This document shows positions 7,014 to 63,163 of a stretch of 64,000 nucleotides of DNA, one piece after another. The DNA is from Rhizomicrobium sp. (lineage in GTDB: Bacteria > Pseudomonadota > Alphaproteobacteria > Micropepsales > Micropepsaceae). The stretch covers positions 669,241 through 733,240 of the forward strand of contig JBBCHM010000002.1 in the NCBI GenBank assembly GCA_037200045.1, given 5' to 3'. How positions within the stretch are numbered: position 1 is the stretch's first letter; each line of letters begins with the position of its first letter. The notes below the pieces were generated by a model. That model saw nothing but the letters and a program-made list of their open reading frames with translations, was not told the DNA's origin and made no database searches. The translations under genes were made by a program, and so were the position numbers.

Positions 7014-7091
7014 CGCACCGGTCGGATGGAATGAAAACACGCGATTTACCCCTACTCTGACTGCCACACAGCACCACGCATGTGCCACTTA

Positions 7092-40835: not shown

Positions 40836-40838
40836 GCC

Positions 40839-41477
40839 ATGTCCACACCGCAATCGACCGAACCCATCCGCCTCCTCGTGGTCGACGATCATCCGATGCT
40901 GCGCCAAGGCATCGCGAGCCTGCTTCAGTCGGAACCGGACCTCGCCCTGGCCGGCGAGGCGGCGACGGGCGGCGAAGCGATCGAGCTGTTCCGCGCGCTA
41001 CGGCCCGACGTCACCCTGATGGATATCCAATTGCCGGACATGGACGGCACCGAAGCCATCCGTCGCATCCGGGAGGAATTTCCCGCGGCGCGCCTGCTCG
41101 TGCTCACCACCTATTCCGGCGATGTGCAGGTTCTGCGCGCGCTCAAATCGGGCGCTGCCGGCTATCTTCTGAAGAGCGCGCTGCGCAAGGATCTGCTCGA
41201 CGCCATTCGGACGGTCCATGCGGGGGGACGCAGGCTGCCGCCCGATATCGCGATGAAGATCGCCGAGCATGCCGGCGACGATGCCCTCAGCGGCCGCGAA
41301 GTCGAGATCCTGCGCCTCGTGGCGACGGGGCGGACCAACAAGCAGATTGCCGAAAAGCTGTCGATCGCCGAAGAAACGGTGAAGACCCATATCAAGAGCA
41401 TCCTATCCAAGCTCGGCGTCACCGACCGGACGCAGGCCGTCACCACCGCTCTGAAGCGCGGCATCATCGAGCTCTGA
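40839..41477 (+). CDS. NarL/LuxR family response regulator
   Basis: VVDDHPMLRQG, MDIQLP, LTTY, LSGREVEIL, ETVKTH. Confidence 0.93.
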   Translation: MSTPQSTEPIRLLVVDDHPMLRQGIASLLQSEPDLALAGEAATGGEAIELFRALRPDVTLMDIQLPDMDGTEAIRRIREEFPAARLLVLTTYSGDVQVLRALKSGAAGYLLKSALRKDLLDAIRTVHAGGRRLPPDIAMKIAEHAGDDALSGREVEILRLVATGRTNKQIAEKLSIAEETVKTHIKSILSKLGVTDRTQAVTTALKRGIIEL

Positions 41478-41594
41478 TCCAAGCCCCCCGCGGCAAATGC
41501 CTCCCCCGAACGAGGGAGCGCGTGCTCGCTTGAACTGGTCTTTGGCCGCCGGACGGCTTCTGCGAACGTGCCGTCGTTCCTGCAGGAGGCGGTC

Positions 41595-45219: not shown

Positions 45220-47538
<2,319 letters not shown>

Positions 47539-47612: not shown

Positions 47613-47623
47613 CTGTCGGACAA
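47613..47623. promoter_or_regulatory. FadR-type operator copy 1 (CTGTCGGACAA)
   Basis: TGTC-N-GACA palindrome upstream of the TonB receptor. Confidence 0.6.
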
Positions 47624-47670: not shown

Positions 47671-49164
47671 TTACTTTTCTGCCGCTATCCGTTCCGCGGC
47701 GAGGATCCCGAAGGTCGACGCCTCCGACCAACCGCCGGCCACGCCAAGACGCGGCCCGCCCTGGAGGCCGCCCATCGCGCCGCCCGCCGCATAGAGGCCT
47801 GGGATCGGACGGTCCGTCATGTCGACAATCTGGGCGTCCGGGGTCACCGCCAGGCCGCCCATCGCAAACGTGATCCCGGCTATGACGGGCATGGCGAAAT
47901 AGGGCGGGACACTGAGGGCACGGCCGCCCGGACTGCGGGGCGGGGCGAGGAGCGCCGCGCCCGAAGCCGCGCCGTCGTTCTTGCGCGCCGGACCTTCGAA
48001 GACCTCCTCTCCCGGAACGCCGGTGACCTCATAGAGCGAGGCACGTGCGGCGGGGCCGGCCGCGCTCGCCCAATAGGCGTTCACGGCTTCGACATTGCGC
48101 ACGACGGCGTCGCGCGGAAGACCGGCCTTCTCCGCCAGCTCGCCGATCGTGCCGGCCTCTAACAGCGTCGCCGCCAGTTCGACGAACAACGGGTTGGCGG
48201 GGACATCGCCATAGCGGCCTTCGCGCTCCCACATGCTCGAATCGAAGATCGCCCAGCAATTGTCGGGCGTGCGGCTCCGCGCGATCGCGTTGGCGACGCG
48301 TTCGCCCTTCGCGCTTTCGTCGACGAAGCGTTCGCCATGGCCGTCGACGAGCAGGCCGGTATAGATCAGAGCGCCCGGCGCGGGCAGCGGCCACAGCCGG
48401 TCGTCGGTCAGCGCGTCGCGCGACAGCGCATAGCCGTAGAACCACTCCATGTTCACGCATTTCGCGCCCAGCGAAAGGCCGATGCGCAGCGCATCGCCGG
48501 TATCGTTGGGCGATCCGCGCAGCTTGTAGTGCGGCGTGATGTATTTCGCGACGAGTTCGGGATTGCCCTGAAAGCCGCCATCGCAAAGCAGAAGATTGCG
48601 GCCGCGGACAAAGCTGTCGGATGTCGCGGTGCGCACGCGCACCGCATAGCCGCCGTCGATCCGCTCGGCCGCCACCGCGCGATGGCCGATGCGATGATCC
48701 CCGCCCGCGGCGACGAAGGCGGCATGCATCTTCGAAAGCAGGATGTCCGGCCCCTTGTCGCGCCAGCCCCGCCCGACGGTGGAGTCGCGTTGGGGCAGCA
48801 GCACGTTCTGCATCGCCTCCTCGGCCGGATTGAGCACGCCGAACGGCGCGCCTTCCTCGGCCAGGAAACGATAGGCCCGGCGCACATTGTTCGCCCAGGC
48901 GCGCACGACATCGGCGCGCGCGTGCCCGCCGGTTTCGTCCATCACCTTGTTGTAGAGTTCGTCAGGCGTGCGGATCTTGGGATCCCACATCGCGGCGTGA
49001 AACCACCCACCGGAAATGCGTCCATTGCCAAAACCCGGCGCGCTGTCGTGGCGCTCGAGCACGATGGCGCGGAGCCCGAGCTGCTGTGCGCGGCGCGCGG
49101 CGCAAAGCCCCGCCACGCCGCTGCCGACAATCACGACGTCGGCGATATCGCCCGCGCCGCTCAT
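47671..49164 (-). CDS. FAD-dependent oxidoreductase (FAD_binding_2: flavocytochrome c / KstD / TcuA superfamily)
   Basis: IVGSGVAG, LLCDGGFQGN, TGDA, LLVDGHGERFVDE, ITFAMGGL, GLYAAG. Confidence 0.88.
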   Translation of the reverse strand: MSGAGDIADVVIVGSGVAGLCAARRAQQLGLRAIVLERHDSAPGFGNGRISGGWFHAAMWDPKIRTPDELYNKVMDETGGHARADVVRAWANNVRRAYRFLAEEGAPFGVLNPAEEAMQNVLLPQRDSTVGRGWRDKGPDILLSKMHAAFVAAGGDHRIGHRAVAAERIDGGYAVRVRTATSDSFVRGRNLLLCDGGFQGNPELVAKYITPHYKLRGSPNDTGDALRIGLSLGAKCVNMEWFYGYALSRDALTDDRLWPLPAPGALIYTGLLVDGHGERFVDESAKGERVANAIARSRTPDNCWAIFDSSMWEREGRYGDVPANPLFVELAATLLEAGTIGELAEKAGLPRDAVVRNVEAVNAYWASAAGPAARASLYEVTGVPGEEVFEGPARKNDGAASGAALLAPPRSPGGRALSVPPYFAMPVIAGITFAMGGLAVTPDAQIVDMTDRPIPGLYAAGGAMGGLQGGPRLGVAGGWSEASTFGILAAERIAAEK

Positions 49165-50036
49165 GGCGCTTCGACACCCGGCACGGAAACTTCGACGATG
49201 TCGATCTGGCCGCTTGAATTAACTTCGGCGTCCTTGCGGCGGTCCGAACCGATGTACCGCAGATTGTCGATCAGTTCGAAGCCGGTGGTCGCGAGATACA
49301 GCGTCGTCCCGTTGGGGCCGCCGAGCGCGGGCGCCAGCGTATCGCGCCCCGGATTGGGAATCTCGTCGAGCAGTCTTCCATCCGCGCCCAGGCGATAGGC
49401 GCCGACATTGCCGCCGCCGCACCATACCGCGCCTTCGGCGTCGAGGCAGATGCCGTCGATGACAAAGCCCGGTCGTTCCGCCATCGTTTCGCGGTTCGTC
49501 AAGGAGCCGTCGGACTTGATGCGAAAGCGCGTGAGGCGGCCGATGCGCGCTTCCGCGACGATCAGGTGCTCGCCATCCGGCGTGACCGCCGAACCGTTCG
49601 GCGCGACCATGTCTTCGGCCACGACCCGGCAGGTGCCGTCCGGCATCGCAAGAATGACATTATCCGTCGCCGAACCCGTGGCTCCGCCGTTGCGGCCGCC
49701 GACATAGGCGCGCCCTTCTTTGTCCACCACCATGTCGTTGATGAACGACGCGCAGTGCGGCGAAAGATCGGCATGGGTCCACAGCTTGCCGTCCTTGAAC
49801 GCCAGGAGCTTGCGGTCAAGCATCGCGGAAATCAGCAGCGTACCGTCGGCGAGAAAGCCCAGTCCGGACGGCCGGTCGTCGATCCCGACGACCTTGCTGA
49901 GTTTGCCGTCCGCAGTGAGATGCATCACGGCATGGCCGTGAATGTCGGAGAACCACAGCGCGCCATGGCGCCAGCGCGGCCCTTCCGGAAAGCTGATCCC
50001 GTCGGCGAGTGTGCGAAGCCCAGTCTTGCCCGTCAT
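49161..50036 (-). CDS. SMP-30/gluconolactonase/LRE family protein
   Basis: FPEGPRW, WFSDI, PSGLGF, NDMVVD, PNG, DGICLDAEGAVW. Confidence 0.9.
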   Translation of the reverse strand: MTGKTGLRTLADGISFPEGPRWRHGALWFSDIHGHAVMHLTADGKLSKVVGIDDRPSGLGFLADGTLLISAMLDRKLLAFKDGKLWTHADLSPHCASFINDMVVDKEGRAYVGGRNGGATGSATDNVILAMPDGTCRVVAEDMVAPNGSAVTPDGEHLIVAEARIGRLTRFRIKSDGSLTNRETMAERPGFVIDGICLDAEGAVWCGGGNVGAYRLGADGRLLDEIPNPGRDTLAPALGGPNGTTLYLATTGFELIDNLRYIGSDRRKDAEVNSSGQIDIVEVSVPGVEAP

Positions 50037-50074: not shown

Positions 50075-50089
50075 AACTGTCGGACAGTT
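50075..50089. promoter_or_regulatory. FadR-type operator copy 2 (AACTGTCGGACAGTT)
   Basis: Perfect 7-1-7 palindrome between the SDR and lactonase genes. Confidence 0.7.
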
Positions 50090-50101: not shown

Positions 50102-50881
50102 TTAGCCGGCGGTATAGCCACCATCTACATATAGCGTCTGGCCGGTCATAAAGGCCGAGGCGGGCGAGGCCAGGAACACCAGCGCCCCCAAAAGGTCGCC
50201 CACTTCGCCCAACCGGCCGACGGCGATCCGGCGCTTGATACCGTCATACAAGTCGGGCTGCAGCCGGATCAGATCGCGGTTGAGGTCGGTCACGATGACC
50301 GTCGCCCCCAGCGTGTTGACCGTGATGCCGTCCCCGGCCACCTCGAAGGCCAGGGAGGCGCCAAAATTCGCCAGCGCCGCCTTGCTCGCGCAATAGGGCG
50401 TGCGGTTGGCCATGCCGCGGCCGGACAGAACCGAGCCCATATTGATGACGCGGCCATACTTGTTCCGGGCCATCACCGGCACGAAGGCGCGCGCGCACAG
50501 GAACGCGCCGGTCACGTTGACATCGACGATGCGGCGCCATTCCTCCACCGAAAGTTCGGTCATCAGCTTCGGCGCGGTGACGCCGGCATTGTTGAAGAGA
50601 ATGTCGGCCCGGCCGAACCCCGCCTGCACCTTCTCCGCGACCAGGTTCACGGCCGCCTCGTCGGTCACATCGGCTTCCACGATAACGGCGCGCCGGCCTG
50701 CGCCCGTCACGGCTTGCGCAGCGCGTTCCAATTTTGCGCGGTCGCGGGCTACGAGCGCCACGTCGGCGCCGGCCTGGGCAAAGGCGCGCGCGGCGGCCGA
50801 GCCGATACCGCCGCCGGCACCCGTCACGACGGCAACCCGACCGTCGAGCCGGAAACTGTCGAGGATCGAGGTCTCGGACAT
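50102..50881 (-). CDS. SDR family oxidoreductase
   Basis: TGAGGGIG, NNAG, YCASK, MTGQTLYVDGG. Confidence 0.92.
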   Translation of the reverse strand: MSETSILDSFRLDGRVAVVTGAGGGIGSAAARAFAQAGADVALVARDRAKLERAAQAVTGAGRRAVIVEADVTDEAAVNLVAEKVQAGFGRADILFNNAGVTAPKLMTELSVEEWRRIVDVNVTGAFLCARAFVPVMARNKYGRVINMGSVLSGRGMANRTPYCASKAALANFGASLAFEVAGDGITVNTLGATVIVTDLNRDLIRLQPDLYDGIKRRIAVGRLGEVGDLLGALVFLASPASAFMTGQTLYVDGGYTAG

Positions 50882-51076: not shown

Positions 51077-52459
51077 TTACAATTTGTAGCCCTGCTGGCG
51101 TTCGTCGCTCCAGCGCCTCGCCTTATAAGCGAATTCCGGCAGTTCCGAGCGCGCCACTTCGCGCAGGGTCATCCACACATTGGTGCGCTGCTTGATCGCG
51201 GCGCGAATCTCCTCGAGCCGTTCCGCGCCGCCCGCGGCGAAAGCGATGAGCACCTCGACATCGGTCTTGCCGTCCGGGGTCGTGAACACGCGGCCGGCAT
51301 ATTCGACAACCTCGGGAAACGCGAAAACCGCGGCGTCGACCGCGCTCGGCCACACGTTGTTTCCGCGGATCTTCAACATGTCGTCGAAGCGGCCGATCGT
51401 GCCGCATTCGATGGCGTTCCAGCAGAGCCCGCCGCCGGCATCGCGGTAAGAAACAAAGCGTGCCGCATCGCCGGTCCGGAAGCGGATGACCGGCGTGCCT
51501 TCGATCGACAGATTGGTGACGACCATCTCGCCGGCCTCGCCGGACGCGACGGGACGCATGGTCTGCGGATCGACGACCTCGGTCAGGGTTTCCCATTCGA
51601 ACATCCGCATCAATCCGCGGGCACCGCCGCGCGTGACGGCGCCGCGATCGAGCGTCGATGCGGAGAACCCGGCGCATTGCGTGCTGCCATAGCCTTCCTG
51701 CAGACCGCAGCCCCAATGTTCTTCGATCTTCTGCGCCCACTCGACCGGGTAACCTTCCGCCGCGATGAACAGGCCATGCATGTCCGGAAACGCCTCGCGC
51801 GGGACAATGCCACGGCGCAGCAGCGCGTCGGTCAGGGTGTGAAGATAGTTGGTGGACGCGTAGATGAAATTCAGACCGCCCAGCCGCAGCATCAGATCGA
51901 TCTTGGCATCGGTCGACATATTGCCGCCGGGATGAAAGCCGGTCGCCCCGATGATGCGCAGCCCTTCGCCCGGCCCCCAGCCGCCCGTGGTCATCCCGCC
52001 GGCCGGCACGCAGTTCAGCACGGTGTCGCCCCGGCGCAGACCCGCCAGGTGCCAGGCGAGCGCATGCAGATAGCCCAGCATGTGCACGTCGCGCTGGCTG
52101 CGGCCATAAATCTCCTGCCCCTGCCCGGAAGTGCCGCCCGTCAGATTGACGAGGGCAACATCCGTGCGCGGAATGCCGAGCCGCGTGCCGAAAGGCGGCG
52201 CGGCCTGCTGGTCGGCCAGGAAATCGGCCTTCGACGATGTCGGAAAGCGCTGCGCAAACGCTTCGAGCGTTTCGATATCGTCCGGACGCAGCCCGACGGA
52301 CTGCATCTTCTGTCGGTAATAGGCGCTCGAATCGTAAAGGCGCGCGACCTGGCGGCGCACCTTCACCAATTGAAGGCCTTCAAGCTCGTCGCGCGACAGC
52401 GCGGCGAGCCTGGCCAGATACGGCGAATCCTCATATGGATTTTTCATGCCCGTGCGCAC
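51077..52459 (-). CDS. Phenylacetate-CoA ligase (PaaK)-family acyl-CoA ligase
   Basis: FPTSSKAD, LTGGTSG, QEGYGSTQ, PVIRFRTGD, GRFDDMLKIRGNNVWP. Confidence 0.88.
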   Translation of the reverse strand: MRTGMKNPYEDSPYLARLAALSRDELEGLQLVKVRRQVARLYDSSAYYRQKMQSVGLRPDDIETLEAFAQRFPTSSKADFLADQQAAPPFGTRLGIPRTDVALVNLTGGTSGQGQEIYGRSQRDVHMLGYLHALAWHLAGLRRGDTVLNCVPAGGMTTGGWGPGEGLRIIGATGFHPGGNMSTDAKIDLMLRLGGLNFIYASTNYLHTLTDALLRRGIVPREAFPDMHGLFIAAEGYPVEWAQKIEEHWGCGLQEGYGSTQCAGFSASTLDRGAVTRGGARGLMRMFEWETLTEVVDPQTMRPVASGEAGEMVVTNLSIEGTPVIRFRTGDAARFVSYRDAGGGLCWNAIECGTIGRFDDMLKIRGNNVWPSAVDAAVFAFPEVVEYAGRVFTTPDGKTDVEVLIAFAAGGAERLEEIRAAIKQRTNVWMTLREVARSELPEFAYKARRWSDERQQGYKL

Positions 52460-52477
52460 GCTGTCCTCACCGTCGAC

Positions 52478-52891
52478 CTAGGAAGATGCCGGCACGAAGA
52501 GCGGGAGCGTCACGCTGTCCGTCACGTCGCGGAATATCACGCGTACCGGCGTCTCCGCCCGAACGTCCGACGGATCGCACTCGACGATGTTCGATACGAT
52601 CCGCACGCCTTCATCCAGCTCGATGATCGCGACGACATACGGCACGTCGGACGCATAGACATCTTTCGGCACCGGGTGGCGCACGACGATCCAGCTGAAA
52701 ACCTTGCCACGCCCGGACGCTTCCAGCCAGCGTACGGCGTCCGAACGGCAATGCGAGCAGAACGTCGTGGGGGGAAAGCGATTGCGGCCGCAATTGCCGC
52801 ATTGCTGGATCAGCAATTTGTGTCGTCGCGTCCCTTCCCAGAAGGGCGCGCTCTCGGGATCGGGGACCGGCAACGGCTTGGCATATGTCAT
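52478..52891 (-). CDS. DUF35 Zn-ribbon/OB-fold protein
   Basis: PFWEG, CGNCG...CSHC, GKVFSW, PYVVAIIELDEG. Confidence 0.92.
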   Translation of the reverse strand: MTYAKPLPVPDPESAPFWEGTRRHKLLIQQCGNCGRNRFPPTTFCSHCRSDAVRWLEASGRGKVFSWIVVRHPVPKDVYASDVPYVVAIIELDEGVRIVSNIVECDPSDVRAETPVRVIFRDVTDSVTLPLFVPASS

Positions 52892-52894
52892 GGA

Positions 52895-54052
52895 TCAATT
52901 CCGCAAAATCATCGCGCTGCCGCAGGTCATCGCGCCGGCGGTGGTAAGGCCGATCCTGGCATCGGGCACCTGGCGAGGCCCAGCCTCGCCGCGCAATTGC
53001 TGCACCGCCTCGATGACGTGGTTCAGACCGTGAATATAGCCTTCCGACAGCAATCCGCCGGCGGTGTTGAGCGGAAGCTCGCCGCCGCGCGCGATGCGGC
53101 CGCCCTGCACATAGGCGCCGCCTTCGCCTTCCTTGCAGAAGCCGAGGCCTTCCAGCGCCATGATCACGCTGTAGGTGAAACAGTCGTAGATCTCGGCGAA
53201 ATCGACGTCGCGCTGCGTGACGCCGGCGCTGCGCCACAGATCGTCGGCGATGTATTTGGCGAAGTTGTGGGATTGATCGGGCCAGCGGATCGCATCGAAC
53301 AGATCCTCGCCCTGGTCCGGCCCGCCGCCATAGGCACCGCCCATGATGTAGACCGGCTTCTTCTTCATGTCGCGCGCGCGTTCCGTGCCGGTGATCAGCA
53401 CGGCGCAGGCGCCGTCGGTTTCCAGGCAGATATCGAGCATGCGGAACGGCTCGACGATCATGCGCGAGTCGAGATAGTCGGCCATGGTGATCGGTTGGCG
53501 CTGCATGGCGCGCGGATTGCGCGTTGCGTTTTCCCGAAAAGTGACCGCGATCTCGCCGAGCTGTTCGGGCGCCGTGCCATATTTGATGATGTGCCGGCGG
53601 CACCACATCGCCATGGCCTGCGGATAGGTGATCCAGCCGAAGGGCGCGGTGTATTGCGTGATTCCATGCGCGGAAAGATCGCGACCACCGCCCAGCCGGA
53701 AGCCGGAACGTCCGTTCATCGCGCGAAAGCACAGCACGTTGCGGGCAAGTCCGGCTTCGATCGCCGCCGTCGCGGCCAGGGTGATGAGATTGGCGGCGTT
53801 GCCGCCGCTCAGATAGTCGACGGCATAGCCGGCATTATCGAGGCCGAGTTCGGTGGCAACCGCCATCGCCGGCGCGGAATCGTTGAAGTGGAAGCTGATG
53901 ACGCCGTCGATGTCGGCCGCTTCAAGGCCGGCGTCGGCGATCGCCTTCAGGCACGCTTCGGACGCCAGGCTGCGGACGGTGCGTCCCGACTTCTTGGAGA
54001 AATCCGTCCAGCCGATTCCTGCGATCGCGTATTTGTCGCGTAGGCTCCACAT
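52895..54052 (-). CDS. Ltp2-like (SCP-x thiolase-fold) aldolase
   Basis: AIAGIGWTDFSKKSGR, CLETDG, IYDCFT, NTAGGLLSEGYIHG; no thiolase nucleophile Cys (DYLSGGNAA). Confidence 0.87.
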   Translation of the reverse strand: MWSLRDKYAIAGIGWTDFSKKSGRTVRSLASEACLKAIADAGLEAADIDGVISFHFNDSAPAMAVATELGLDNAGYAVDYLSGGNAANLITLAATAAIEAGLARNVLCFRAMNGRSGFRLGGGRDLSAHGITQYTAPFGWITYPQAMAMWCRRHIIKYGTAPEQLGEIAVTFRENATRNPRAMQRQPITMADYLDSRMIVEPFRMLDICLETDGACAVLITGTERARDMKKKPVYIMGGAYGGGPDQGEDLFDAIRWPDQSHNFAKYIADDLWRSAGVTQRDVDFAEIYDCFTYSVIMALEGLGFCKEGEGGAYVQGGRIARGGELPLNTAGGLLSEGYIHGLNHVIEAVQQLRGEAGPRQVPDARIGLTTAGAMTCGSAMILRN

Positions 54053-54055
54053 GGC

Positions 54056-54847
54056 TCAACCCTTGTCGTAATCCGGTTTGCGTTTTTCCTTGAAGGCGAT
54101 CAGACCTTCGGCCGCGTCGGGATGCGTCGTCGCATAATCATGGACGATCCTGATCTCCTGCTTCAGTCCCGATGCCTGATCCGTCTTCAGCGTCAGATTG
54201 GCGAGCCGTTTCGCGGTCGCCATGCCCGTGCGGCTCTTTTCAAGCAACCCGTCCACCAGCGCATCCACGCCGCCGTCGAGTTCGGCCGCTGGAAATACGC
54301 GGCACAGCAGGCCGATGCGATGGGCTTCCGCCGCCGGCAGCAATTCGCCCGTCAGCATGAGATATTTGGCCATCTGCAAGCCGACCGCGCGCGGCAGGCG
54401 CTGCGATCCGCCGGCGCCGGGCAATTGGCCGAAATTGAGATGTCCGTCGCCGATGGAAGCCGTGTCGGCCGCCACGGCCAGATCGCAGGCGAGCAAGAGT
54501 TCAAGGCCGCCGGCGACACACACACCATTGATGGCGGCAATGTAGATCTTTGGCGAAGCCTCGATCGTGTCGAGAAGATCGTGGAATTTCGACAGGAAGT
54601 CTTGGAAACGTTCTGGGGATTTGTAGAGTCCCAAATAGCCTTCCAGATCTCCGCCCGCCGAAAAGCTTCGGCCACTTCCCGTGATCACGACGACGCCAAT
54701 GTCGTTCCGCGCCTCGATTTCCGAAACTGCGGCACGCAACTTCCCAATAGTTGCCCAATCAAGAGGATTCAGCTTGGAAGGTCTGTTCAGGGTGACCCGG
54801 GCACGGCCTGGTGCAAAAGAGATAAGGACTTCGTTTTCCGTGCTCAC
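54056..54847 (-). CDS. Enoyl-CoA hydratase/isomerase family protein
   Basis: TLNRPSKLN, FSAGGDL, AAINGVCVAGGLE, LPGAGG; GTG 54847 chosen (ORF track start 54919). Confidence 0.9.
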   Translation of the reverse strand: MSTENEVLISFAPGRARVTLNRPSKLNPLDWATIGKLRAAVSEIEARNDIGVVVITGSGRSFSAGGDLEGYLGLYKSPERFQDFLSKFHDLLDTIEASPKIYIAAINGVCVAGGLELLLACDLAVAADTASIGDGHLNFGQLPGAGGSQRLPRAVGLQMAKYLMLTGELLPAAEAHRIGLLCRVFPAAELDGGVDALVDGLLEKSRTGMATAKRLANLTLKTDQASGLKQEIRIVHDYATTHPDAAEGLIAFKEKRKPDYDKG

Positions 54848-54873
54848 CAGCTCATCCGCTGCCGTATTGTCCG

Positions 54874-54887
54874 TTTGTCCGACAGTT
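54874..54887. promoter_or_regulatory. FadR-type operator copy 3 (TTTGTCCGACAGTT)
   Basis: In the crotonase/fadR divergent promoter; reverse complement AACTGTCGGACAAA matches copy 2. Confidence 0.7.
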
Positions 54888-54942
54888 GCATTGTAAGCAG
54901 CGCAGGGGATATCCATCAAGGGAAATCTGAGAGATTCCGCTC

Positions 54943-55722
54943 ATGGCAGTAATCGAGACCAAGCAGGAAAGTGGGCTGGTGCCACTGGAACGGGCGCCGA
55001 CCTATCGCTTGGTTCATGACGCCATCGAACGCGAGATCCTGGCGGGGCGCCTGAAGATCGGCGATCCGTTGCCGGCGGAATTGCAGTTGGCCGAGCGTTT
55101 CAAGGTTAACCGCTCCACGGTGCGCGAGGGCATCCGCCTTCTTGAGAAAAGCGGGTTGGTGGAGCGCAAGGGCGGAAAGCGCCCCCGGATCGCCGCGCCG
55201 CGCTATCGCGACCTGGCCTCGGCCGCGAGCCGCGCGCTGATCCTGCATGCCGTTACCTTTCGCGAATTGTGGGAGGCCTCGATGGTCATCGAGCCGTCGA
55301 CGGCGGAATTCGCGGCGCGAAACATCACCGAGGCCGACATTGCGAAGCTTTCGGCCAACATCGCCGAGATGGAGGAGAGCGTCGAGCGTCTGGAAACCGG
55401 GCTGGAAGACAAGCCGGACGGGTTCGTGGACCTGGACCGGAAATTTCACGAATTGCTGGTCAACGCGACCGGCAATCGCGTCCTGATCCTGGCGCATGAG
55501 CCTGTCACCACCCTGTTCATTCCGGCCGGACGTCTCATACTTCCGCGCCTGAAGACCTATCGCCGCGTGCTCGACGCGCATCGGCATATTTTCGACTTCC
55601 TCAAGAAGCGCGATCCCGAAGGCGCGGGCAAATGGATGCACCGGCATATGGACGATTTCCGCCGTGGCTACGAATTGACCGGGCTGGATTTCGATACGCC
55701 GCTCGAGATGGTCAACGTCTGA
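54943..55722 (+). CDS. FadR/GntR family transcriptional regulator
   Basis: GDPLPAELQLAERFKVNRSTVREGI HTH; FCD with DRKFHELL...ATGN. Confidence 0.92.
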   Translation: MAVIETKQESGLVPLERAPTYRLVHDAIEREILAGRLKIGDPLPAELQLAERFKVNRSTVREGIRLLEKSGLVERKGGKRPRIAAPRYRDLASAASRALILHAVTFRELWEASMVIEPSTAEFAARNITEADIAKLSANIAEMEESVERLETGLEDKPDGFVDLDRKFHELLVNATGNRVLILAHEPVTTLFIPAGRLILPRLKTYRRVLDAHRHIFDFLKKRDPEGAGKWMHRHMDDFRRGYELTGLDFDTPLEMVNV

Positions 55723-55728
55723 TCCGGC

Positions 55729-56655
55729 TCAGCCCCGCCAGCCTTCCAGCGTCGCGATATCGAGCGCGTCGATCGCGGCGCGCACTTGTTTCTGCTGCGC
55801 CGCCGGAAGCTCGGCGCGCGGTTTGCGCGGATAGCCGCCGGGCAGGCCGAGATCTATGAGCGCGCCCTTGGTCGCCCGGATCCCGCCATTGGCATAGATG
55901 AGTCCGTGCAGCCGCACGATCTTTCCGTAGGCGCGCATGACGCCCTCCAAATCGTTGGCGGCATAGGCGCGGACCAGCGACATGCACAGATGCGGCGCCA
56001 GATTGCCTTCCGAGCACAGATAGCCCTGCCCGCCGAGCGCCCAGCCGACCAAGGCCTGAACCGGCCCGCCGACAAAAACGCCCACGCGCCCGCGCGTAGC
56101 GTCGACGATGTCGGCGAGATAGCGCAGATCCTGATGGCTGCAATTGACCTCGATGATGTGCGGATAGGTCTCGAGCAGACGCGAAATGGTTTCCACCGGC
56201 ACGCGGTAGCCGACCGACTGGTGGGTGGAGATCACGACGGGAAGATCGGTCGATTCCAGCGCTTCGGTCAGATAGCTGGCGACCTCCTCCTGCAAAGGCG
56301 GGTGGCCGTGGCCCACGTCGAGCGAATAGATTTGCGCGGCATCGACGCCGGCGGCTTTGCAGAGCGCCAGGAATTCCACCATCTGACGGGGCGTGCGGGG
56401 CTCCACGCCCATCGCGCGCACGGGCACCTTGCCCTTCAATTCCTCCACGCCGATGTCCAATAGGCGGCGGGTCTCCGCCGGGGTCAACGTGTAGCCCTCG
56501 CCGCTGCCGCTCCCACCGATATAGACGCCGATTCCGGCGGCGGCCAACCGGCGCAGATGCCCGCGGAAGCCGGCTTCATCGATATGGCCGTCCCGGTCGA
56601 ACGGCGTGATGGAAATCACGAAAGCGGCAGGCGGTCGCGCGGTGGTGTTCGACAT
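55729..56655 (-). CDS. DapA/DHDPS-fold protein lacking canonical catalytic residues
   Basis: ITPFDRDGHID, GSGSGEG, KGKVPV, G.PRKP fold motifs; HIIEVNCS where DapA has NIxGIKES. Confidence 0.85.
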   Translation of the reverse strand: MSNTTARPPAAFVISITPFDRDGHIDEAGFRGHLRRLAAAGIGVYIGGSGSGEGYTLTPAETRRLLDIGVEELKGKVPVRAMGVEPRTPRQMVEFLALCKAAGVDAAQIYSLDVGHGHPPLQEEVASYLTEALESTDLPVVISTHQSVGYRVPVETISRLLETYPHIIEVNCSHQDLRYLADIVDATRGRVGVFVGGPVQALVGWALGGQGYLCSEGNLAPHLCMSLVRAYAANDLEGVMRAYGKIVRLHGLIYANGGIRATKGALIDLGLPGGYPRKPRAELPAAQQKQVRAAIDALDIATLEGWRG

Positions 56656-56729
56656 CCGATTTCCCTCTCTGGCTCTTTTCTGCGGAATTCCGGGATTTGT
56701 GTCCTCCCGTGCACAATCATTTTGACCGA

Positions 56730-56740
56730 CTGTCAGACAG
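56730..56740. promoter_or_regulatory. FadR-type operator copy 4 (CTGTCAGACAG)
   Basis: Perfect 5-1-5 palindrome in the dapA-like/OYE divergent promoter. Confidence 0.7.
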
Positions 56741-56769
56741 AATGCTAGTGCTTTTGCCGGAGCCGGCAC

Positions 56770-58734
56770 ATGACCACGACCTCACTTCTCAATTCTCCGA
56801 TCCGCATCGGGGCGATGACCGCCCCCAACCGGATCATGATGGCGACGCACGGGCCGCGCCTGCCGCAGGCACGCTACCTAGGCTATCTGGAGGCCCGGGC
56901 GGCGGGTGGGGTCGGTCTCTTCGGCTTCAACGTCGGGGCGCTGGGGATTTCGCCGTTTCCCTTCGGACCGGGGCGGACAGCGCCGCCCTTTGCCGCCGAG
57001 CCCGACGCCGTCCCACCACACCCCCGCACGGCCGAGGGCCGCACTTTCTATGACGGCCAGATCGGCACCTACCGCGTGTGGAGCGACGCCGTTCATCGCC
57101 ATGGCGCCAAGTCGATCGGCCAGCTCTATCATCCGGGCGCTGCCCGCCATGCCGACAACTATCAGCCGGCCGTCGGACCGTCGGCGGTTGCCGACGAACT
57201 CGAGGGCAATGTTCCGCGCGCCCTCACCCGCAAGGATATCGCCGATCTGACTCAGGCCTATGCCTTGGGAGCGCGGCGGGCGCTGGAGGCGCGCTGCGAC
57301 GGGCTGGAACTACATGCCGCGCACGGATACCTGCTGCACGAATTTCTGTCGCCGCTCTTCAACCAGCGCGACGACATCTATGGCGGCACGCTGGAGAACC
57401 GGCTCCGGCTCGTTCTGGAGATCCTGGCCGCGGTCCGCGACGCCATCGACGACGCCTGCCCCGTCGGCCTGCGATTGACAGGGCCCGACAATGCCGAGGG
57501 CGGCCTCAGCCTCGAAGATATCGTCCATGTCGCGACGCGCGCGACGCAATCGGGCGCCGCCTATATCAGCATTTCCGCCGGGACCTATGCCGGCCTTCTG
57601 GGCGGGAAGAACCTGCCCTATGTCGCACCTGGCTTCGTGAGGTCGCCGCCGAACGTCGCCGCAGCCGCCGCCGTCCGGCGCGCCGTTGCCGTTCCGGTCA
57701 TCGTCACCGGCCGTATCGTCGATCTCGCCATTGCCGAAGACATCGTGCGGTCCGAAGCAGCCGACGTTGTCGGCATCGTGCGCGGGCTGATCGCCGAGCC
57801 GCGCCTGGCCGCCAAGCATTTCCAGAAGTCCGACGAGCTTCCGACCCCGTGCATCGCCTGCAATGAATGCCACACCGGACAGATGGTGGCGTGCCCCACC
57901 AATCCGTCGATCGGCTGGGAGGTACTCGGCATGCCGAAGGCGGCCGAAAAAGCGCTGCGCGTGCTGGTGATCGGCGCGGGCCCCGCCGGTATCCAATGCG
58001 CGTTGACCGCCGCCGAACGGGGACACCCTGTCGAACTCGTCGAACGCGACGGCGAGATCGGCGGGCTGACCGCGCTTCTGGCGCGAAGCACCGAACAGGC
58101 GGATTACGCAGCCTATCTGCGCTATGCCACCACGATGCTCGGCCGGCGCGGCGTCAACCTTCGGCTGAACACTGAAGCGGATGCCGCGCTGATCGTGCAG
58201 CTCTCGCCGGATGTCGTGGTGCTGGCGACAGGCGCCGTGCGTGCATCCCGGCCGGGATATACCGATCCGGTGGCTGCGATGAACACGCCCGCCCTATCGG
58301 GCCGCCATGTCGTGGTCGACGGCGGCGTCGGCAAGCACCTTCCCCCGCTCATCTGCGCCAACCGGCTGGCCGAAATGGGATGCCGCGTCACGCTGGTCAC
58401 CCAATCCGCGGCACCGGGCGAAAAAGTCGAGGCGGCTAGCCGCATCGCGCTTCTGGCGTCGCTGAGCGCGCGAGGCGTCGCCATCGTTCCCGGCACACGC
58501 GCGGGCGCGTTCGAAAATCGGGCGCTGAGCCTTCGGAACGTCTGGACAGGCGCGACGACGAACCTTGCCGACATCGATGCCGTCGTCTGTGCCGACAATC
58601 GCTTTCCCGGCGCGGCGCTCGAGAGGGCGGTGCGCGACCTTGGACTTCCGGTCCATGTCATCGGCGACGCGCTGGCGCCGCGGCGCATGCTGCATGCCTC
58701 GCTGGACGGTGCGCGGCTGGGCAACACCCTATGA
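56770..58734 (+). CDS. Large OYE-family NADH:flavin oxidoreductase (FMN barrel + Fe-S + FAD)
   Basis: PNRIMM, ELHAAHGYLLHEFLSP, NQRDDIYGG, CIACNEC...CPTNP, VIGAGPAG, GDA. Confidence 0.9.
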   Translation: MTTTSLLNSPIRIGAMTAPNRIMMATHGPRLPQARYLGYLEARAAGGVGLFGFNVGALGISPFPFGPGRTAPPFAAEPDAVPPHPRTAEGRTFYDGQIGTYRVWSDAVHRHGAKSIGQLYHPGAARHADNYQPAVGPSAVADELEGNVPRALTRKDIADLTQAYALGARRALEARCDGLELHAAHGYLLHEFLSPLFNQRDDIYGGTLENRLRLVLEILAAVRDAIDDACPVGLRLTGPDNAEGGLSLEDIVHVATRATQSGAAYISISAGTYAGLLGGKNLPYVAPGFVRSPPNVAAAAAVRRAVAVPVIVTGRIVDLAIAEDIVRSEAADVVGIVRGLIAEPRLAAKHFQKSDELPTPCIACNECHTGQMVACPTNPSIGWEVLGMPKAAEKALRVLVIGAGPAGIQCALTAAERGHPVELVERDGEIGGLTALLARSTEQADYAAYLRYATTMLGRRGVNLRLNTEADAALIVQLSPDVVVLATGAVRASRPGYTDPVAAMNTPALSGRHVVVDGGVGKHLPPLICANRLAEMGCRVTLVTQSAAPGEKVEAASRIALLASLSARGVAIVPGTRAGAFENRALSLRNVWTGATTNLADIDAVVCADNRFPGAALERAVRDLGLPVHVIGDALAPRRMLHASLDGARLGNTL

Positions 58735-58743
58735 GCGAAATGC

Positions 58744-59619
58744 ATGATCGATAAACAAATCGGGTTGTCCGCCTTCGTCGCGAGTCTTCGCGACGGCATG
58801 ACGATCGGCATCGGTGGCTGGGCGACCCGCCGCAAGCCCATGACGCTGGTGCGCGCCATCGCGCGCTCCGGCCTGAAGGACCTGACGGTCGTTTCCTATG
58901 GCGGTCCGGACGTGGGCATCCTGGCGGCGGAGGGCAAGATCCGGAAGCTCGTTTTCGGATTCGTATCGCTGGATCACATCCCGCTCGATCCGCATTTCCG
59001 CGCCGCGCGCCAGGCCGGCGCCTTCGAGATTCTGGAACTGGACGAAGGCATGGTGCATTGGGGCCTGAGGGCCGCGGCCATGCATCTGCCGTTTCTGCCA
59101 TCCCGCAGCGGCCTCGCGACCGACATTGCCAACCAGCCGGAATTGAAGACGATCCGCAGCCCCTATGCCGACGGCGAGCTTCTGCTGGCCATGCCGGCGC
59201 TGAGGCTCGATGCGGCGCTCATCCATGTGCATCGCGCGGACCGGCACGGAAATGCGCTGATCCTGGGTCCCGACCCGTTCTTCGACGAATTGATGGCGAG
59301 GGCGGCGGAGCGCACCTACATCTCCACCGAGCGCCTGGTGAGCACCGAAGATCTCGCCATCGCCGAAAACGCCCGTTTCAACCCGTTCGAACGCAGCGTC
59401 GTGCAGGGCGTGATCCTGGCACCTTTCGGCGCGCATCCCACGGTCGCCACACCGGACTACGGCATCGACATGGCGCATCTGAAGGAATACGCCGCAAGCG
59501 CGGCGCCCGGCGCCTGGCAGGAATATCGCGCGCGATTCATCGCCGTCGAGCCCGAACGATATCTCGCCAGCGTCGGCGGCGCCGAGAATCTCGGCGCCTT
59601 GCCGGCGCCCATCTATTGA
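58744..59619 (+). CDS. ipdA: CoA-transferase-like subunit alpha, steroid C/D-ring hydrolase (IpdA/ScdL1)
   Basis: GIGGWATRRKPM, YGGPDVG, FVSLD, DEGMVHWGLRAAA, GAHPT. Confidence 0.88.
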   Translation: MIDKQIGLSAFVASLRDGMTIGIGGWATRRKPMTLVRAIARSGLKDLTVVSYGGPDVGILAAEGKIRKLVFGFVSLDHIPLDPHFRAARQAGAFEILELDEGMVHWGLRAAAMHLPFLPSRSGLATDIANQPELKTIRSPYADGELLLAMPALRLDAALIHVHRADRHGNALILGPDPFFDELMARAAERTYISTERLVSTEDLAIAENARFNPFERSVVQGVILAPFGAHPTVATPDYGIDMAHLKEYAASAAPGAWQEYRARFIAVEPERYLASVGGAENLGALPAPIY

Positions 59620-59627
59620 GCCCCGCC

Positions 59628-60437
59628 ATGACTTACGGCTACGCCCTCGCCGACCTTTGCATCTGCGCCGCGGCCGAAGCCTGGCGCCACGATGGCGAAG
59701 TTCTGGCGACCGGCATCACACCCATCCCGCGCCTCGCCGCGGGACTGGCAAAGCTCACCTTCAACGACGCGCTGCTGATGACCGACAGCGAAGCGTTTTT
59801 CGTGTCGGAGCCGGTGCCGCTCGGCCCGCGAAACGGCTATCAGCCGAAATTCGAAGGCTGGGCCTCCTACGCGCGCACCTTCGATTTGCTGTGGGGCGGC
59901 AAACGCCACGCCTTCGTCCTGCCGACGCAGATCGACCGCTTCGGCCAGGCGAACATCAGCGTTGTCGGCGATCATGCCAGGCCCAAGACGGCGCTGCTCG
60001 GTTCGCGCGGCTATCCCGGCAATTCGGTGCATCATCCCAACAGCTATTTCCTCCCGACGCACAACAAGCGCGCCTTCGTGGCGGGCGAAGTCGATTTCGT
60101 GTCGGCCGCCGGTTACAACCCCGCCCGATGGCCGGACGGGAAAAAACCGCCCGAGCTCGATCTGCGGCTGATCGTCAGCAATCTCGCGGTGCTCGATTTC
60201 GAGGGCCCCGACCATGCGATCCGCGTGCGTTCGCTGCACCCCGGCGTTTCGTTCGAAGACGTGCAGGACAAAACCGGCTTTGCGCTGGAAAAGGCGCCCG
60301 GCCTCGCGCAGACGCCGGCACCCACGCCCGCCCAGCTCGATCTCATCCGCACCAGACTCGATCCTCTCGGGTTGCGGCTCGGCGTGTTCAAGGACGACAG
60401 CGACGGCGCGTTCGTCGCGACCAAGGAGCCGGCATGA
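59628..60437 (+). CDS. ipdB: CoA-transferase-like subunit beta (IpdB/ScdL2)
   Basis: ADLCICAAAEAWRHDGEVL, LMTDSEA, QIDRFGQANIS, LGSRGYPGN, SLHPGV. Confidence 0.88.
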   Translation: MTYGYALADLCICAAAEAWRHDGEVLATGITPIPRLAAGLAKLTFNDALLMTDSEAFFVSEPVPLGPRNGYQPKFEGWASYARTFDLLWGGKRHAFVLPTQIDRFGQANISVVGDHARPKTALLGSRGYPGNSVHHPNSYFLPTHNKRAFVAGEVDFVSAAGYNPARWPDGKKPPELDLRLIVSNLAVLDFEGPDHAIRVRSLHPGVSFEDVQDKTGFALEKAPGLAQTPAPTPAQLDLIRTRLDPLGLRLGVFKDDSDGAFVATKEPA

Positions 60438-61321
60438 GCGATCTCATCGAACCGAAAAAGACCGATGTCGTCTACGAAACGGACGCGCCGGTCATCTATG
60501 TCGCGGAAGGCCCGATCGCGTGGATCACGATGAACCGCGAGCGGTATCACAACGTCCAGAACTCGCAGATGACCTACGCCCTCGACGCCGCCTTCCGGCG
60601 GGCTGTGGACGATGACGCGATCAAGGTGATCGTGCTGGGCGGCGCCGGAAAGCATTTCTCCGCCGGGCATGACATCGGCACGCCGGGCCGCGATCTGCAT
60701 CACAGCTTCGAGCGCCGCCACCTGCTCTACGATCACGTCAACAAGCCCGGCGCCGAACTTCTCTACACGCGCGAGCAGGAAGTCTATCTCGGCATGTGCC
60801 GGCGCTGGCGCGACCTGCCCAAGCCGACCATCGCCATGGTGCAAGGCGCCTGTATCGCGGGCGCGCTCATGCTGGCCTGGGTGTGCGACTTCATCGTCGC
60901 GTCCGACGATGCCTTCTTCCAGGATCCGGTGGTGCGGATGGGAATCCCCGGCGTGGAATATTTCGCGCATGCCTTCGAGCTGCCGCCGCGCATTGCCAAG
61001 GAGTTCCTGCTCCTGGGCGAGCGGATGTCCGCCGAACGCGCCGCGCAATTCGGCATGGTCAACCGGGTGGTTCCACGCGCCGCGCTCAAGGACGAAGTCG
61101 GCGCCATGGCGGCGAAACTCGCCGCGCAGCCGCGCCTGGGCGTGTGGCTGAGCAAGCAGGCGATCAATCACGTGGAGGAATTGCGCGGCAAGCGCACGGC
61201 GATGGACGCCGTCTTTCACATGCACCATTTCGCGCACGCCCAGAACGACCTGGTGAGCGGCGACAGCCTGGCGGGACTGGACGGCAAGTCCATGGCGCAG
61301 GCGAACAAGACGCAGGGATAA
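60434..61321 (+). CDS. echA13: Enoyl-CoA hydratase (EchA13/ScdN-like)
   Basis: NVQNSQMTYALD, FSAGHDIG, REQEVYLGMCRRWR, MGIPGVEYFAH. Confidence 0.82.
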   Translation: MSDLIEPKKTDVVYETDAPVIYVAEGPIAWITMNRERYHNVQNSQMTYALDAAFRRAVDDDAIKVIVLGGAGKHFSAGHDIGTPGRDLHHSFERRHLLYDHVNKPGAELLYTREQEVYLGMCRRWRDLPKPTIAMVQGACIAGALMLAWVCDFIVASDDAFFQDPVVRMGIPGVEYFAHAFELPPRIAKEFLLLGERMSAERAAQFGMVNRVVPRAALKDEVGAMAAKLAAQPRLGVWLSKQAINHVEELRGKRTAMDAVFHMHHFAHAQNDLVSGDSLAGLDGKSMAQANKTQG

Positions 61322-61338
61322 CGCGGTTGGGCAATGCC

Positions 61339-62406
61339 TTGACGACACCGCTGACGCGCCTCCTGGGCTGCCGCTATCCCGTCATCCAGACGGCGATGGG
61401 CTGGGTCGCGACACCCCGGCTCGTGGCCGCAGCCTGTGAAGCCGGCGCGTTCGGCTTTCTTGCCGGCGCGGTGATGACCGCGCGCGAACTGGAAGCCGCC
61501 ATCGCGGAGGTCCGCGAAAAGACGCAAGCGCCTTTCGGCGTGAACTTTCACATGTTCCAGCCCGAGGCGGCCGCGATCGTGGATATCGTCATCGCCCATC
61601 GCGTCCGTGCGGTGAGCTTCGGTCGCGGGCCGGATGCCACGGCGATCGCCCGGTTCCGCAAGGCCGGCATCCTCTGCGTTCCCACCGTCGGCGCGCTGAA
61701 ACATGCGCGCAAAATGGAGGAGCTCGGCGTGGACATGCTTGTCGTGCAAGGCGGCGAAGGTGGCGGCCATACCGGCGGCGTGGCGACAACCGTGCTGCTG
61801 CCCCAGGTGCTCGATGCGGTTGCCGTCCCCGTGGTCGCGGCGGGCGGCTTCGCGGATGGCCGCGGCCTTGCGGCCGCGCTCGCCTATGGCGCGGTGGGAA
61901 TCGCCATGGGCACGCGCTTCCTTCTGACGCAGGAAAGTCCCGTGCCTGCGGCCACCAAACAGCGCTACCTAGCAGCCGACGCTGGCGACATCGTGGTTTC
62001 GACCAAGCTGGACGGCCTGCCCCAGCGGATGATCCGCAACCGCGTTCTGGCTCGCATCGACCGATCCGGGCGCTGGTCCATGTGGCTGCGCGGCTTGCGG
62101 GCGGCCGTTGCGATGAAGCGGCAAACAGGCGCGAGCTGGCCTAAGTTGTTCAGCGCCGCCCGCAAAATGAGAAGAAGCGGCGGCCTCGGCTTGGCCCAAG
62201 CGATGATGGCGGGCACCGCGCCGACGCTGATACGCAAAGCCATCGTCGAAGGCGAACCCGAGAACGGCATCCTGCCCAGCGGGCAGATCGCCGGCCTGAT
62301 CGACGAGATCCCTACCTGCCACGACCTGGTGGATCGCATCGCAGAAGAAGCCCGGCAATGCATCGCGGCACTGGCGCCGTACGCAGCCGCAGCAGCACAA
62401 GCGTGA
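61339..62406 (+). CDS. ipdC: Nitronate monooxygenase-family enoyl-CoA reductase (IpdC/ScdK-like)
   Basis: YPVIQTAMGWV, QGGEGGGHTG, AAGGFADGRG, MGTRFL; TTG start at 61327 or 61339. Confidence 0.82.
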   Translation: MTTPLTRLLGCRYPVIQTAMGWVATPRLVAAACEAGAFGFLAGAVMTARELEAAIAEVREKTQAPFGVNFHMFQPEAAAIVDIVIAHRVRAVSFGRGPDATAIARFRKAGILCVPTVGALKHARKMEELGVDMLVVQGGEGGGHTGGVATTVLLPQVLDAVAVPVVAAGGFADGRGLAAALAYGAVGIAMGTRFLLTQESPVPAATKQRYLAADAGDIVVSTKLDGLPQRMIRNRVLARIDRSGRWSMWLRGLRAAVAMKRQTGASWPKLFSAARKMRRSGGLGLAQAMMAGTAPTLIRKAIVEGEPENGILPSGQIAGLIDEIPTCHDLVDRIAEEARQCIAALAPYAAAAAQA

Positions 62407-62413
62407 GGACGTC

Positions 62414-63163
62414 ATGCCCATCGCCACCGAGATTCACGGTCGCATCGCCGAGATCATCCTGGACCATCCCCCCGTCAATGCGCTCGATTCGACGCTGTGG
62501 AACGCGTTTCCCGGCCACGTCCGCGAGCTTGGGGCTCGCGAAGATATTCACTGCGTCCTGATCTACGGCCGGGGACGCGGCTTCTGCGCCGGGGTCGATA
62601 TCAAGGAGATGCAGGCGCATCCCGAGCGCATCACGCTTCTCAACCGCGGCAATTATCTGAGCTTCAAGGCCGTGCGCGAATGTCCGGTTCCGGTCGTCGT
62701 TGCCGCGCACGGCTTCGTCATGGGCAGCGGCATCGGCCTGTGCGGCGCGAGCGACACGATCATCGCATCCGACGATTGCCATTTCGCGCTGCCCGAAATC
62801 GACCGCGGCGCCATGGGTGGTGCTTCGCACCTGTTGCGCATGCTGCCGCTGCACAAGGTCCGCGCTGCCTTCTTCACCGGCGGCCGCATTACGGCGCAGG
62901 AAGCCTGGCGGCTGGGCGCGATCGAGAAGATCGTGCCGAAGGCTGAGCTGGTCGAAGAGGCGCGGGCCTTCTGCGGGGTCATCGCCGGCAAGAGCCGAAC
63001 GGCGCTGGTGCTGGCCAAGCAGGCGCTCAACGGCATCGAAGCGCGCGATGTCGACCGCGACTACCGCTTCGAACAGGGCTTCACGCTGGAAATGTACATG
63101 CACGCGGACAGCCAGAAATCCCGCGACGCCTTCGTCAGCAAGGGCGACAAGGCCGAATTTTGA
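62414..63163 (+). CDS. echA20: Enoyl-CoA hydratase (EchA20/ScdY-like)
   Basis: PPVNAL, FCAGVDIKE, LPEIDRG, YRFEQGFT. Confidence 0.85.
   Translation: MPIATEIHGRIAEIILDHPPVNALDSTLWNAFPGHVRELGAREDIHCVLIYGRGRGFCAGVDIKEMQAHPERITLLNRGNYLSFKAVRECPVPVVVAAHGFVMGSGIGLCGASDTIIASDDCHFALPEIDRGAMGGASHLLRMLPLHKVRAAFFTGGRITAQEAWRLGAIEKIVPKAELVEEARAFCGVIAGKSRTALVLAKQALNGIEARDVDRDYRFEQGFTLEMYMHADSQKSRDAFVSKGDKAEF

Follow-up and report, generated by a model that had tools for sequence, protein, structure and literature searches.

The window analysed here (the whole stretch of 64,000 nucleotides from a Rhizomicrobium sp. contig, JBBCHM010000002.1, derived from a wood decay metagenome) encodes a protein with the fold of dihydrodipicolinate synthase (DHDPS, DapA) in which both the Schiff-base lysine and the catalytic relay of that family are missing. 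The protein belongs to a large, deep and apparently undescribed clade of lysine-less, relay-less DHDPS-fold proteins. Because this is an intact, conserved group that has lost the DapA catalytic residues and lies in clusters for the breakdown of ring compounds, the window protein probably performs chemistry different from that of DapA. The reading we prefer, with a probability of roughly 45%, is that it is an active enzyme of alicyclic acyl-CoA catabolism that works without a Schiff base, probably with the help of a metal or of acid/base residues.

The gene in question is the following.

55729-56655, minus strand: lysine-less DHDPS/NAL-fold gene, 308 aa, stop codon included.

Its frame runs from an ATG at 56655-56653 to a stop codon at 55731-55729, and on an identical metagenome contig a gene caller independently chose this start. 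A Shine-Dalgarno sequence (GAGGG) lies 7 nt upstream of the ATG, and the GC content at third codon positions (0.77) is typical for genes of this 65% GC window. The protein gave a single end-to-end match to the Pfam profile PF00701 (E 5.2e-30; 104.6 bits, where the cutoff is 22.1; positions 7-288 of the 289 in the profile). Its AlphaFold2 model (pLDDT 92.3, pTM 0.90) was matched by Foldseek to DapA 4i7u with a TM score of 0.86 at 22-24% identity, and the top matches were all DHDPS/NAL. Fold and full-length profile match thus place the protein in the DHDPS/NAL superfamily and bear out the full-length 308-residue DapA-fold frame of the original prediction. The protein does not belong to DapA proper: it scored 75.1 bits against the DapA equivalog TIGR00674 (cutoff 206.15), 67 bits against KdgD and 38-47 bits against NanA, and no NCBIfam model reached its cutoff, the scores for all equivalogs (DapA, HpaI-like, KdgD, NanA, KDG aldolase) being far too low. 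The gene is set in a catabolic cluster, not in a lysine-biosynthesis context.

The loss of the catalytic residues was located in three motifs.

56137-56160, minus strand: HIIEVNCS (residues 166-173), strand beta6, with N171 in the Schiff-base lysine column.
56218-56235, minus strand: VISTHQ (residues 141-146), end of beta5, with S143 at the Tyr133 position.
56497-56517, minus strand: GGSGSGE (residues 47-53) in place of (S/V)VGTTGE, with G50/S51 at Thr44/Thr45 and E53 kept.

In HMMER pairwise alignments with solved DHDPS structures, 'iievNcshqdl' was placed with high posterior probability over 'vlgiKdssgdl' and 'ivgvKdatgkl', 'vvISThq' over 'vIYNipPR', and 'ggSGSGEg' over 'vGTTGEs'. When E. 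coli DapA, in a reference sequence whose numbering of T44, T45, Y107, Y133, R138 and K161 checks out, was aligned by MAFFT, the equivalences were N171=K161, S143=Y133, G50/S51=T44/T45, H116/G117=Y106/Y107 and S147=R138. Since both alignments place the three motifs at these sites, the original prediction, which had set HIIEVNCS, VISTHQ and GSGSGE over the GIK(E/D)S, LYN and GTTGE positions, was right about them, and the AAT codon at 56143-56145 does encode N171, within V-N-C and on the minus strand, followed by the predicted cysteine (Cys172). The predicted loss of the Schiff-base lysine and the relay tyrosine likewise holds, and in fact the whole canonical catalytic set is gone. Asn171 occupies the place of the lysine at the end of beta6 (DapA K161). 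The relay triad Tyr133/Thr(Ser)44/Tyr107' and the motif G-x-[ST]-T-G-E are replaced, with S143, G50 and G117 at the triad positions and a residual S-G-S-G-E in which S51 and E53 are retained. The column of the aspartate-semialdehyde-binding Arg138 holds S147. K161 mutants of E. coli DHDPS reportedly kept a small residual activity, so the premise that catalysis requires that lysine is not absolute even in DapA. As read from the alignments, the loss in the window protein goes beyond the case of those mutants, as its Thr-Tyr-Tyr relay is gone too.

We then asked how widely these substitutions are shared. A word-indexed search returned 1350 relatives, the best at 55-61% identity. When 1.84 billion cluster representatives were scanned exhaustively with HMMER, at least 148 clusters (50% identity) scored below E 1e-30, and 1008 below E 1e-10. 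The alignment set comprised 225 full-length relatives (29-61% identity), of which 118 were close homologs and 107 were representatives at 29-54%. None of the 225 has lysine in the K161 column. Asparagine occupies it in 116 of the 118 close homologs and in 53 of the 107 representatives, the others having H, Q, T, R or A. In the Tyr133 column, serine was found in all 118 close homologs and in 75 of the 107 representatives. The identical catalytic substitutions recur in hundreds of relatives from two phyla.

That the gene is a decaying or recently inactivated dapA-like allele, whose homologs would have kept the lysine, was one of the refutations envisaged in the original prediction. Nothing beyond the absent catalytic residues speaks for it. 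The frame is intact, with a good Shine-Dalgarno sequence and typical third-position GC content, no homolog in the alignment has the lysine, and the same substitutions occur in two phyla. In a set of 42 sequences that are 50-59% identical to the window protein, 60 columns do not vary at all. Of the 104 columns with at least 90% conservation in the subfamily, the window protein matches 98, and its six deviations are conservative. Because of these invariant and retained columns, the lysine-less protein is, judging by the alignment, under purifying selection, and we count decay as refuted.

Four distant representatives have a lysine one column past the N171 column (P0202; P0203, which is Gordonia asplenii WP_170196162.1; P0251; P0265; 31-35% identity). 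They share E85 (4/4) and H116 (3/4), two of the residues discussed below, and may be a lysine-retaining intermediate or sister group, or may reflect a one-column alignment shift. In another relative, P0239, two DHDPS units are fused in tandem (594 aa). When domain fusions hinting at function were looked for, this duplication, apparent frameshift fusions and a sub-threshold B12-binding match were all that emerged. The names of distant members, mostly from metagenome-assembled genomes (MAGs) of Chloroflexota and Dehalococcoidia, are all generic, and relatives on plasmid records are named only 'dihydrodipicolinate synthase family protein'. Sequence, profile and Foldseek searches found no solved structure of a clade member, and full-text searching of the literature found nothing describing lysine-less DHDPS-like proteins; the paper that comes nearest deals with 3E96 and 3D0C, which still have the lysine (bioRxiv 10.1101/505230).

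The original prediction had offered a cysteine-dependent mechanism as one possibility and the conservation of N-C-(S/T) as a check. The asparagine of that motif is indeed conserved; the cysteine is not. What such a mechanism has in its favor is that the window protein and 89 of the 118 close homologs have Cys172. In the remaining close homologs S, V, T, L or G stands in its place, only 18 of the 107 representatives have Cys172, and in the wider clade the position is mostly V/I/L/A. Strand alternation should moreover point position 172 away from the barrel lumen. The cysteine mechanism fails because the residue is not conserved, and we consider a Cys172-dependent enzyme highly improbable.

That the protein is still a Schiff-base enzyme, with some other lysine compensating in space, is slightly less improbable, though still very unlikely. 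The sole conserved lysine is K263 (117 of 118 close homologs, 98 of 107 representatives), and the four relatives with lysine at +1 of the N171 column could be seen in the same light. Against this, K263 equals DapA K253, which is found in canonical enzymes that need K161 as well, and it lies, like R260, on helix 259-268 of the C-terminal domain of the AlphaFold2 model; for these reasons it is no clade-specific replacement. The other lysines (K74, K76, K100, K245, K278, K289) are poorly conserved and none stands at a strand C-terminus, and the relay residues Tyr133, Thr44 and Tyr107 are absent too. At the level of sequence, then, no clade-specific lysine was found that could have taken over the catalytic role.

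What the clade has instead is a set of residues of its own. Clade-specific conservation was found for E85, D113 (D or E), H116, S143, H145, Y150, E216 and R260. The positions concerned, besides those given above, are as follows.

56401-56403, minus strand: E85, clade-specific acidic residue after beta3 (DapA G78 column), in 118/118 close homologs and 81/107 representatives.
56308-56319, minus strand: D113-V-G-H116, in a 3-residue insertion after beta4; H116/G117 replace Tyr106/Tyr107.
56002-56010, minus strand: E216-G-N218 after beta8; E216 is clade-specific (DapA T206) and N218 family-wide (DapA N208).
55867-55878, minus strand: R260-A-T-K263; R260 is clade-conserved and K263 corresponds to DapA K253.

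In the AlphaFold2 model the strands were assigned as beta3 79-81, beta4 106-109, beta5 140-144, beta6 167-172 and beta8 211-213, and E85, D113, H116, S143, H145, Y150 and E216 lie in, or a few residues after, beta3, beta4, beta5 and beta8. TIM-barrel enzymes carry out catalysis on the face formed by the strand C-termini. H145 is present in all 118 close homologs and in 60 of the 107 representatives. E85, D/E113 and H116 are together present in 69 and together absent in 16 of the 107 representatives (uncorrected for phylogeny); this joint retention or loss in 85/107 is as a functional unit would be expected to behave. The window protein has every feature by which we define the clade: no beta6 lysine, together with E85, D/E113, H116, S143, Y150, E216 and R260. 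Such a Glu/Asp/His/His/Glu set would suit a divalent-metal site or acid-base pairs, and its predicted position on the catalytic face favours an enzyme over a pseudoenzyme.

The genomic context of the clade was surveyed in 80 homolog loci from GTDB species genomes, mostly of Acidimicrobiia, other Actinomycetota and Alphaproteobacteria. The commonest neighbour was an Amidohydro_2 gene, found within 10 kb in 66 of the 80 loci; in 26 it lies within about 110 bp upstream of the homolog, 21 times on the same strand. The best solved relatives of this partner are PtmU3 (E 1.8e-35) and DitZ (E 1.8e-29), which are amidohydrolase-related dinuclear oxygenases (AROs), diiron enzymes that hydroxylate C-H bonds in diterpenoid substrates (PMC13154177). 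The partner has the motifs D-T-H and D-Y-P-H but a serine at the last acidic position of D-x-P-H-x-[DE], and because of that serine it only partly matches the AROs. The ARO paper makes no mention of DHDPS or aldolase neighbours (PMC13154177).

Several gene orders recur around the homologs. Actinomycetota have a co-directional cassette of enoyl-CoA hydratase (ECH), DUF35, thiolase, Amidohydro_2, GntR and the DHDPS-like gene (L039, L040, L042, L058). The order echA20-ipdB-ipdA ... Amidohydro_2 ... DHDPS-like was found in L014, L055 and L067. A gene of the OYE family adjoins homologs in L004, L007/L019, L027 and L074, in the last in the order OYE, DHDPS-like, Amidohydro_2. Locus L009 carries the SDR-ligase-DUF35-thiolase-ECH module of the window at 66-79% identity, plus the Amidohydro_2 partner. 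In sphingomonad loci, the DHDPS-like gene is accompanied instead by an FCD regulator, an SDR and a luciferase-like monooxygenase. Alphaproteobacteria show the architecture Amidohydro_2, amidase, MFS, DHDPS-like, aminotransferase. A conserved operon of this kind in Alphaproteobacteria comprises genes for a PtmU3-like Amidohydro_2, an amidase and an MFS transporter, the lysine-less DHDPS-like gene, and genes for an AptA-like omega-aminotransferase and a 4HBT thioesterase (L010/L001 6150-12800; L011, L012, L018, L019, L048, L090); it suggests a second, nitrogen-compound context for the family. One actinomycetote locus (L004 7805-13714) has two DHDPS-like paralogs and three Amidohydro_2 genes in an interleaved order.

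A pseudoenzyme, in which the DHDPS scaffold would serve as a ligand-binding or structural partner, for example as a subunit or in substrate delivery for the PtmU3/DitZ-like oxygenase, has to be weighed against this background; it may be likened to the inactive AibH1 partner of AibH2. The canonical catalytic residues are all gone, as such a role would allow, and the amidohydrolase-fold gene is tightly adjacent, often operonic, in several architectures and two phyla. High-potential AROs have no known partner protein in their neighbourhoods (PMC13154177). Clade-specific residues occur on helices alpha1/alpha4 too (D26, R31, H33, R36, E124, Y128), a possible interface. What argues against a mere partner is the conserved ionisable set at the strand C-termini, where TIM-barrel active sites lie, and the finding of the gene without the oxygenase-like partner in the window and in the sphingomonad loci. 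We regard the pseudoenzyme as doubtful, yet as the main rival.

In the window itself, the DHDPS-like gene lies between the following genes.

43860-45134, minus strand: MFS transporter.
45220-47538, minus strand: TonB receptor.
47671-49164, minus strand: KstD-like flavoprotein.
49161-50036, minus strand: SMP-30-like lactonase.
50102-50881, minus strand: SDR.
51077-52459, minus strand: PaaK-like CoA ligase.
52478-52891, minus strand: DUF35/ChsH2-type OB (zinc ribbon) protein.
52895-54052, minus strand: thiolase-like protein.
54056-54919, minus strand: enoyl-CoA hydratase.
51077-54919, minus strand: operon formed by the enoyl-CoA hydratase, thiolase-like, DUF35 and PaaK-like ligase genes, which travels with DHDPS-like homologs in two phyla.
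54943-55722, plus strand: GntR/FCD (FadR-subfamily) regulator, with GntR and FCD domains; 6 bp separate its stop from the DHDPS-like stop.
56770-58734, plus strand: OYE/FMN + FAD oxidoreductase (FadH/BaiCD-like), first gene of an operon divergent from the DHDPS-like gene.
58744-62406, plus strand: ipdA-like, ipdB-like, echA20-like and ipdC-like (NMO) genes.

The regulator gene ends 6 bp from the DHDPS-like stop, so the two genes are convergent. The divergent operon spans 56770-63163 in the window, with another hydratase (ECH) past the NMO/IpdC-like gene, and two acyl-CoA dehydrogenases and an AMP ligase follow beyond the right end of the window (L089 1-9886). The IpdA ortholog of the window matched the IpdAB structures 6co6/6coj/6con with E 2.6e-81. 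By gene content, this appears to be a cluster for steroid C/D-ring (HIP-type) or related alicyclic acyl-CoA catabolism.

Some further features of the surroundings were recorded. A terminator-like GC hairpin with a T-rich tail (55764-55783, plus strand) follows the GntR stop at a distance of 40 nt and falls within the 3' end of the DHDPS-like gene. The annotated start of the enoyl-CoA hydratase (54056-54919) is about 33 residues ahead of the ECH domain, and its 5' end overlaps a candidate operator (54875-54885); the true start may be further downstream. A hybrid sensor kinase (Reg_prop/Y_Y_Y) with a LuxR-type response regulator (37734-41477) is located upstream of the transporter genes, and an AraC-type regulator at 41568-42587. 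The window has three TonB-dependent receptor genes (4659-7088, 22333-24651, 45220-47538), of which the last is 39% identical to a receptor adjoining a DHDPS-like homolog in a Sphingomonadaceae MAG (L007).

Candidate operators for the GntR/FCD regulator were found at four places.

56730-56740, strandless: perfect palindrome CTGTCAGACAG with a GT-N3-AC core, candidate GntR/FCD operator.
54875-54885: operator-like site in the ECH/GntR divergent region, overlapping the annotated hydratase 5' end.
50077-50087: operator-like site, perfect match, upstream of the lactonase-like gene.
47613-47623: operator-like site upstream of the TonB receptor gene.

The DHDPS-like gene and the OYE-ipdAB operon diverge from a shared promoter region of 114 bp, which contains the palindrome CTGTCAGACAG; a GT-N3-AC core is typical of GntR operators. 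This 5-1-5 palindrome was first spotted by eye and then counted by a DNA pattern search, in which CTGTCnGACAG at up to one mismatch gave four sites in the window, all promoter or intergenic and all between 47.6 and 56.7 kb. An inverted-repeat search over intergenic regions with a seed of 6, longer than the 5-1-5 arms, returned nothing; the palindrome was not found upstream of homologs in the other loci, and a sigma-70 promoter scan of 55500-56900 found no promoter. The placement of the sites at four promoters points to a possible regulon with the DHDPS-like gene among its members. FCD regulators adjoin DHDPS-like homologs in 21 of the 80 loci, plus L005 and L092. Since the sites sit in four promoters of the cluster and FCD regulators adjoin homologs elsewhere, control of the DHDPS-like gene by the adjacent FadR-subfamily (GntR/FCD) regulator, as put forward in the original prediction, is plausible, although the regulator gene is convergent with the DHDPS-like gene and not upstream of it.

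For the active enzyme that we prefer, we propose that a divalent metal and/or Glu/Asp/His acid-base pairs would polarise a carbonyl or carboxylate substrate, with the residual G-S-G-E loop and R260 holding a carboxylate. The chemistry would be class-II-aldolase-like or epimerase-like, proceeding through an enolate, and could be a retro-aldol reaction, a hydration/dehydration or an isomerisation. As substrate, we envisage an oxygenated carboxylate or thioester intermediate of the breakdown of alicyclic (steroid- or terpenoid-like) acids, which in most relatives the neighbouring putative diiron hydroxylase would supply. Expression would probably be controlled by the adjacent GntR/FCD repressor. 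In its boldest form, this proposal would be a clade-wide re-tooling of a class I aldolase scaffold into a metal-stabilised-enolate enzyme acting downstream of PtmU3/DitZ-type hydroxylases and thiolase-like/DUF35 retro-aldolases in the dismantling of steroid and diterpenoid rings; so specific a scenario is unlikely to hold in full.

A number of observations weigh against an active enzyme of this kind. The residue in the lysine column varies over the wider clade (N/H/Q/T/R/A), where no position is strictly invariant, and such variability might be expected of a binding protein, which also speaks for the pseudoenzyme. E85 and H116 align to DapA G78 and Y106, which lie near the allosteric site at the dimer interface, and for that reason the E85/H116 set may line an interface cleft, not the catalytic pocket. 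No Amidohydro_2 gene was found in the window by tblastn, nor among the L089 gene calls for a few kb rightward, and the loci from related MAGs in the survey are not independent. A word search of the one metatranscriptome of the sample gave no transcript evidence. Finally, the operator count alone is weak, with 1.6 sites expected per window and 9 of 100 shuffles reaching four.

Comparison with known systems shows what was kept and what was changed. The window protein and DapA (4i7u, 2pcq, 6xgs) have in common a (beta/alpha)8 barrel with a C-terminal helical domain, and a number of structural residues are retained (T17=T11, G52-E53=G46-E47, E61=E55, N218=N208, K263=K253, R277=R268, P279=P270). 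In contrast, the window protein is without K161, Y133, T44, Y107 and R138, and has the 3-residue insertion after beta4 as well as E85, D113, H116, H145 and E216, which are absent from DapA. NAL, the KDG aldolases (YagE/YjhH), HOGA and KdgD share the fold, with weak profile matches; these and other lysine-dependent enzymes of the NAL superfamily all use a beta6 lysine Schiff base, whereas the window protein has asparagine there. The 'DHDPS' proteins 3E96 (B. clausii) and 3D0C (O. iheyensis) lack the catalytic triad but keep the Schiff-base lysine, and 3E96 has H117 at the Tyr107 position, in the same beta4 loop as H116 of the window protein (bioRxiv 10.1101/505230). They are no closer to the lysine-less clade than true DapA (profile E 1.5e-20 versus 4.5e-28).

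The class II pyruvate aldolases (HpaI/HpcH, BphI/DmpG/HsaF) and metal-dependent TIM-barrel epimerases stabilise their enolate by a divalent metal held by Glu/Asp/His, without a lysine enamine, and HsaF-type enzymes occur in steroid catabolism. We liken the window protein to class II aldolases by mechanism alone; no sequence relationship was detected or is claimed. The Ltp2/ChsH2-DUF35 retro-aldolases and the PtmU3/DitZ hydroxylases are recurrent genomic partners of the clade, with different folds, and not homologs.

The DHDPS/NAL superfamily is a textbook one-mechanism family, built on a lysine Schiff base with pyruvate. A large clade under selection without the lysine and the relay would mean that this scaffold either hosts new chemistry or has become a widespread pseudoenzyme. 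The annotation of its members as 'dihydrodipicolinate synthase family protein' or '4-hydroxy-tetrahydrodipicolinate synthase' is misleading for metabolic reconstruction, for example when lysine-biosynthesis genes are counted in MAGs. The links to PtmU3/DitZ-like proteins, ipdAB and thiolase-DUF35 modules point to an unassigned step in the bacterial breakdown of steroids and resin acids. If the proposed function is true, the clade would represent a switch from a class I to a class II mechanism within one fold, and would fill a missing step of steroid and diterpenoid pathways, by which wood-decay and soil bacteria would dismantle ring carbons that are beyond the reach of ordinary beta-oxidation.

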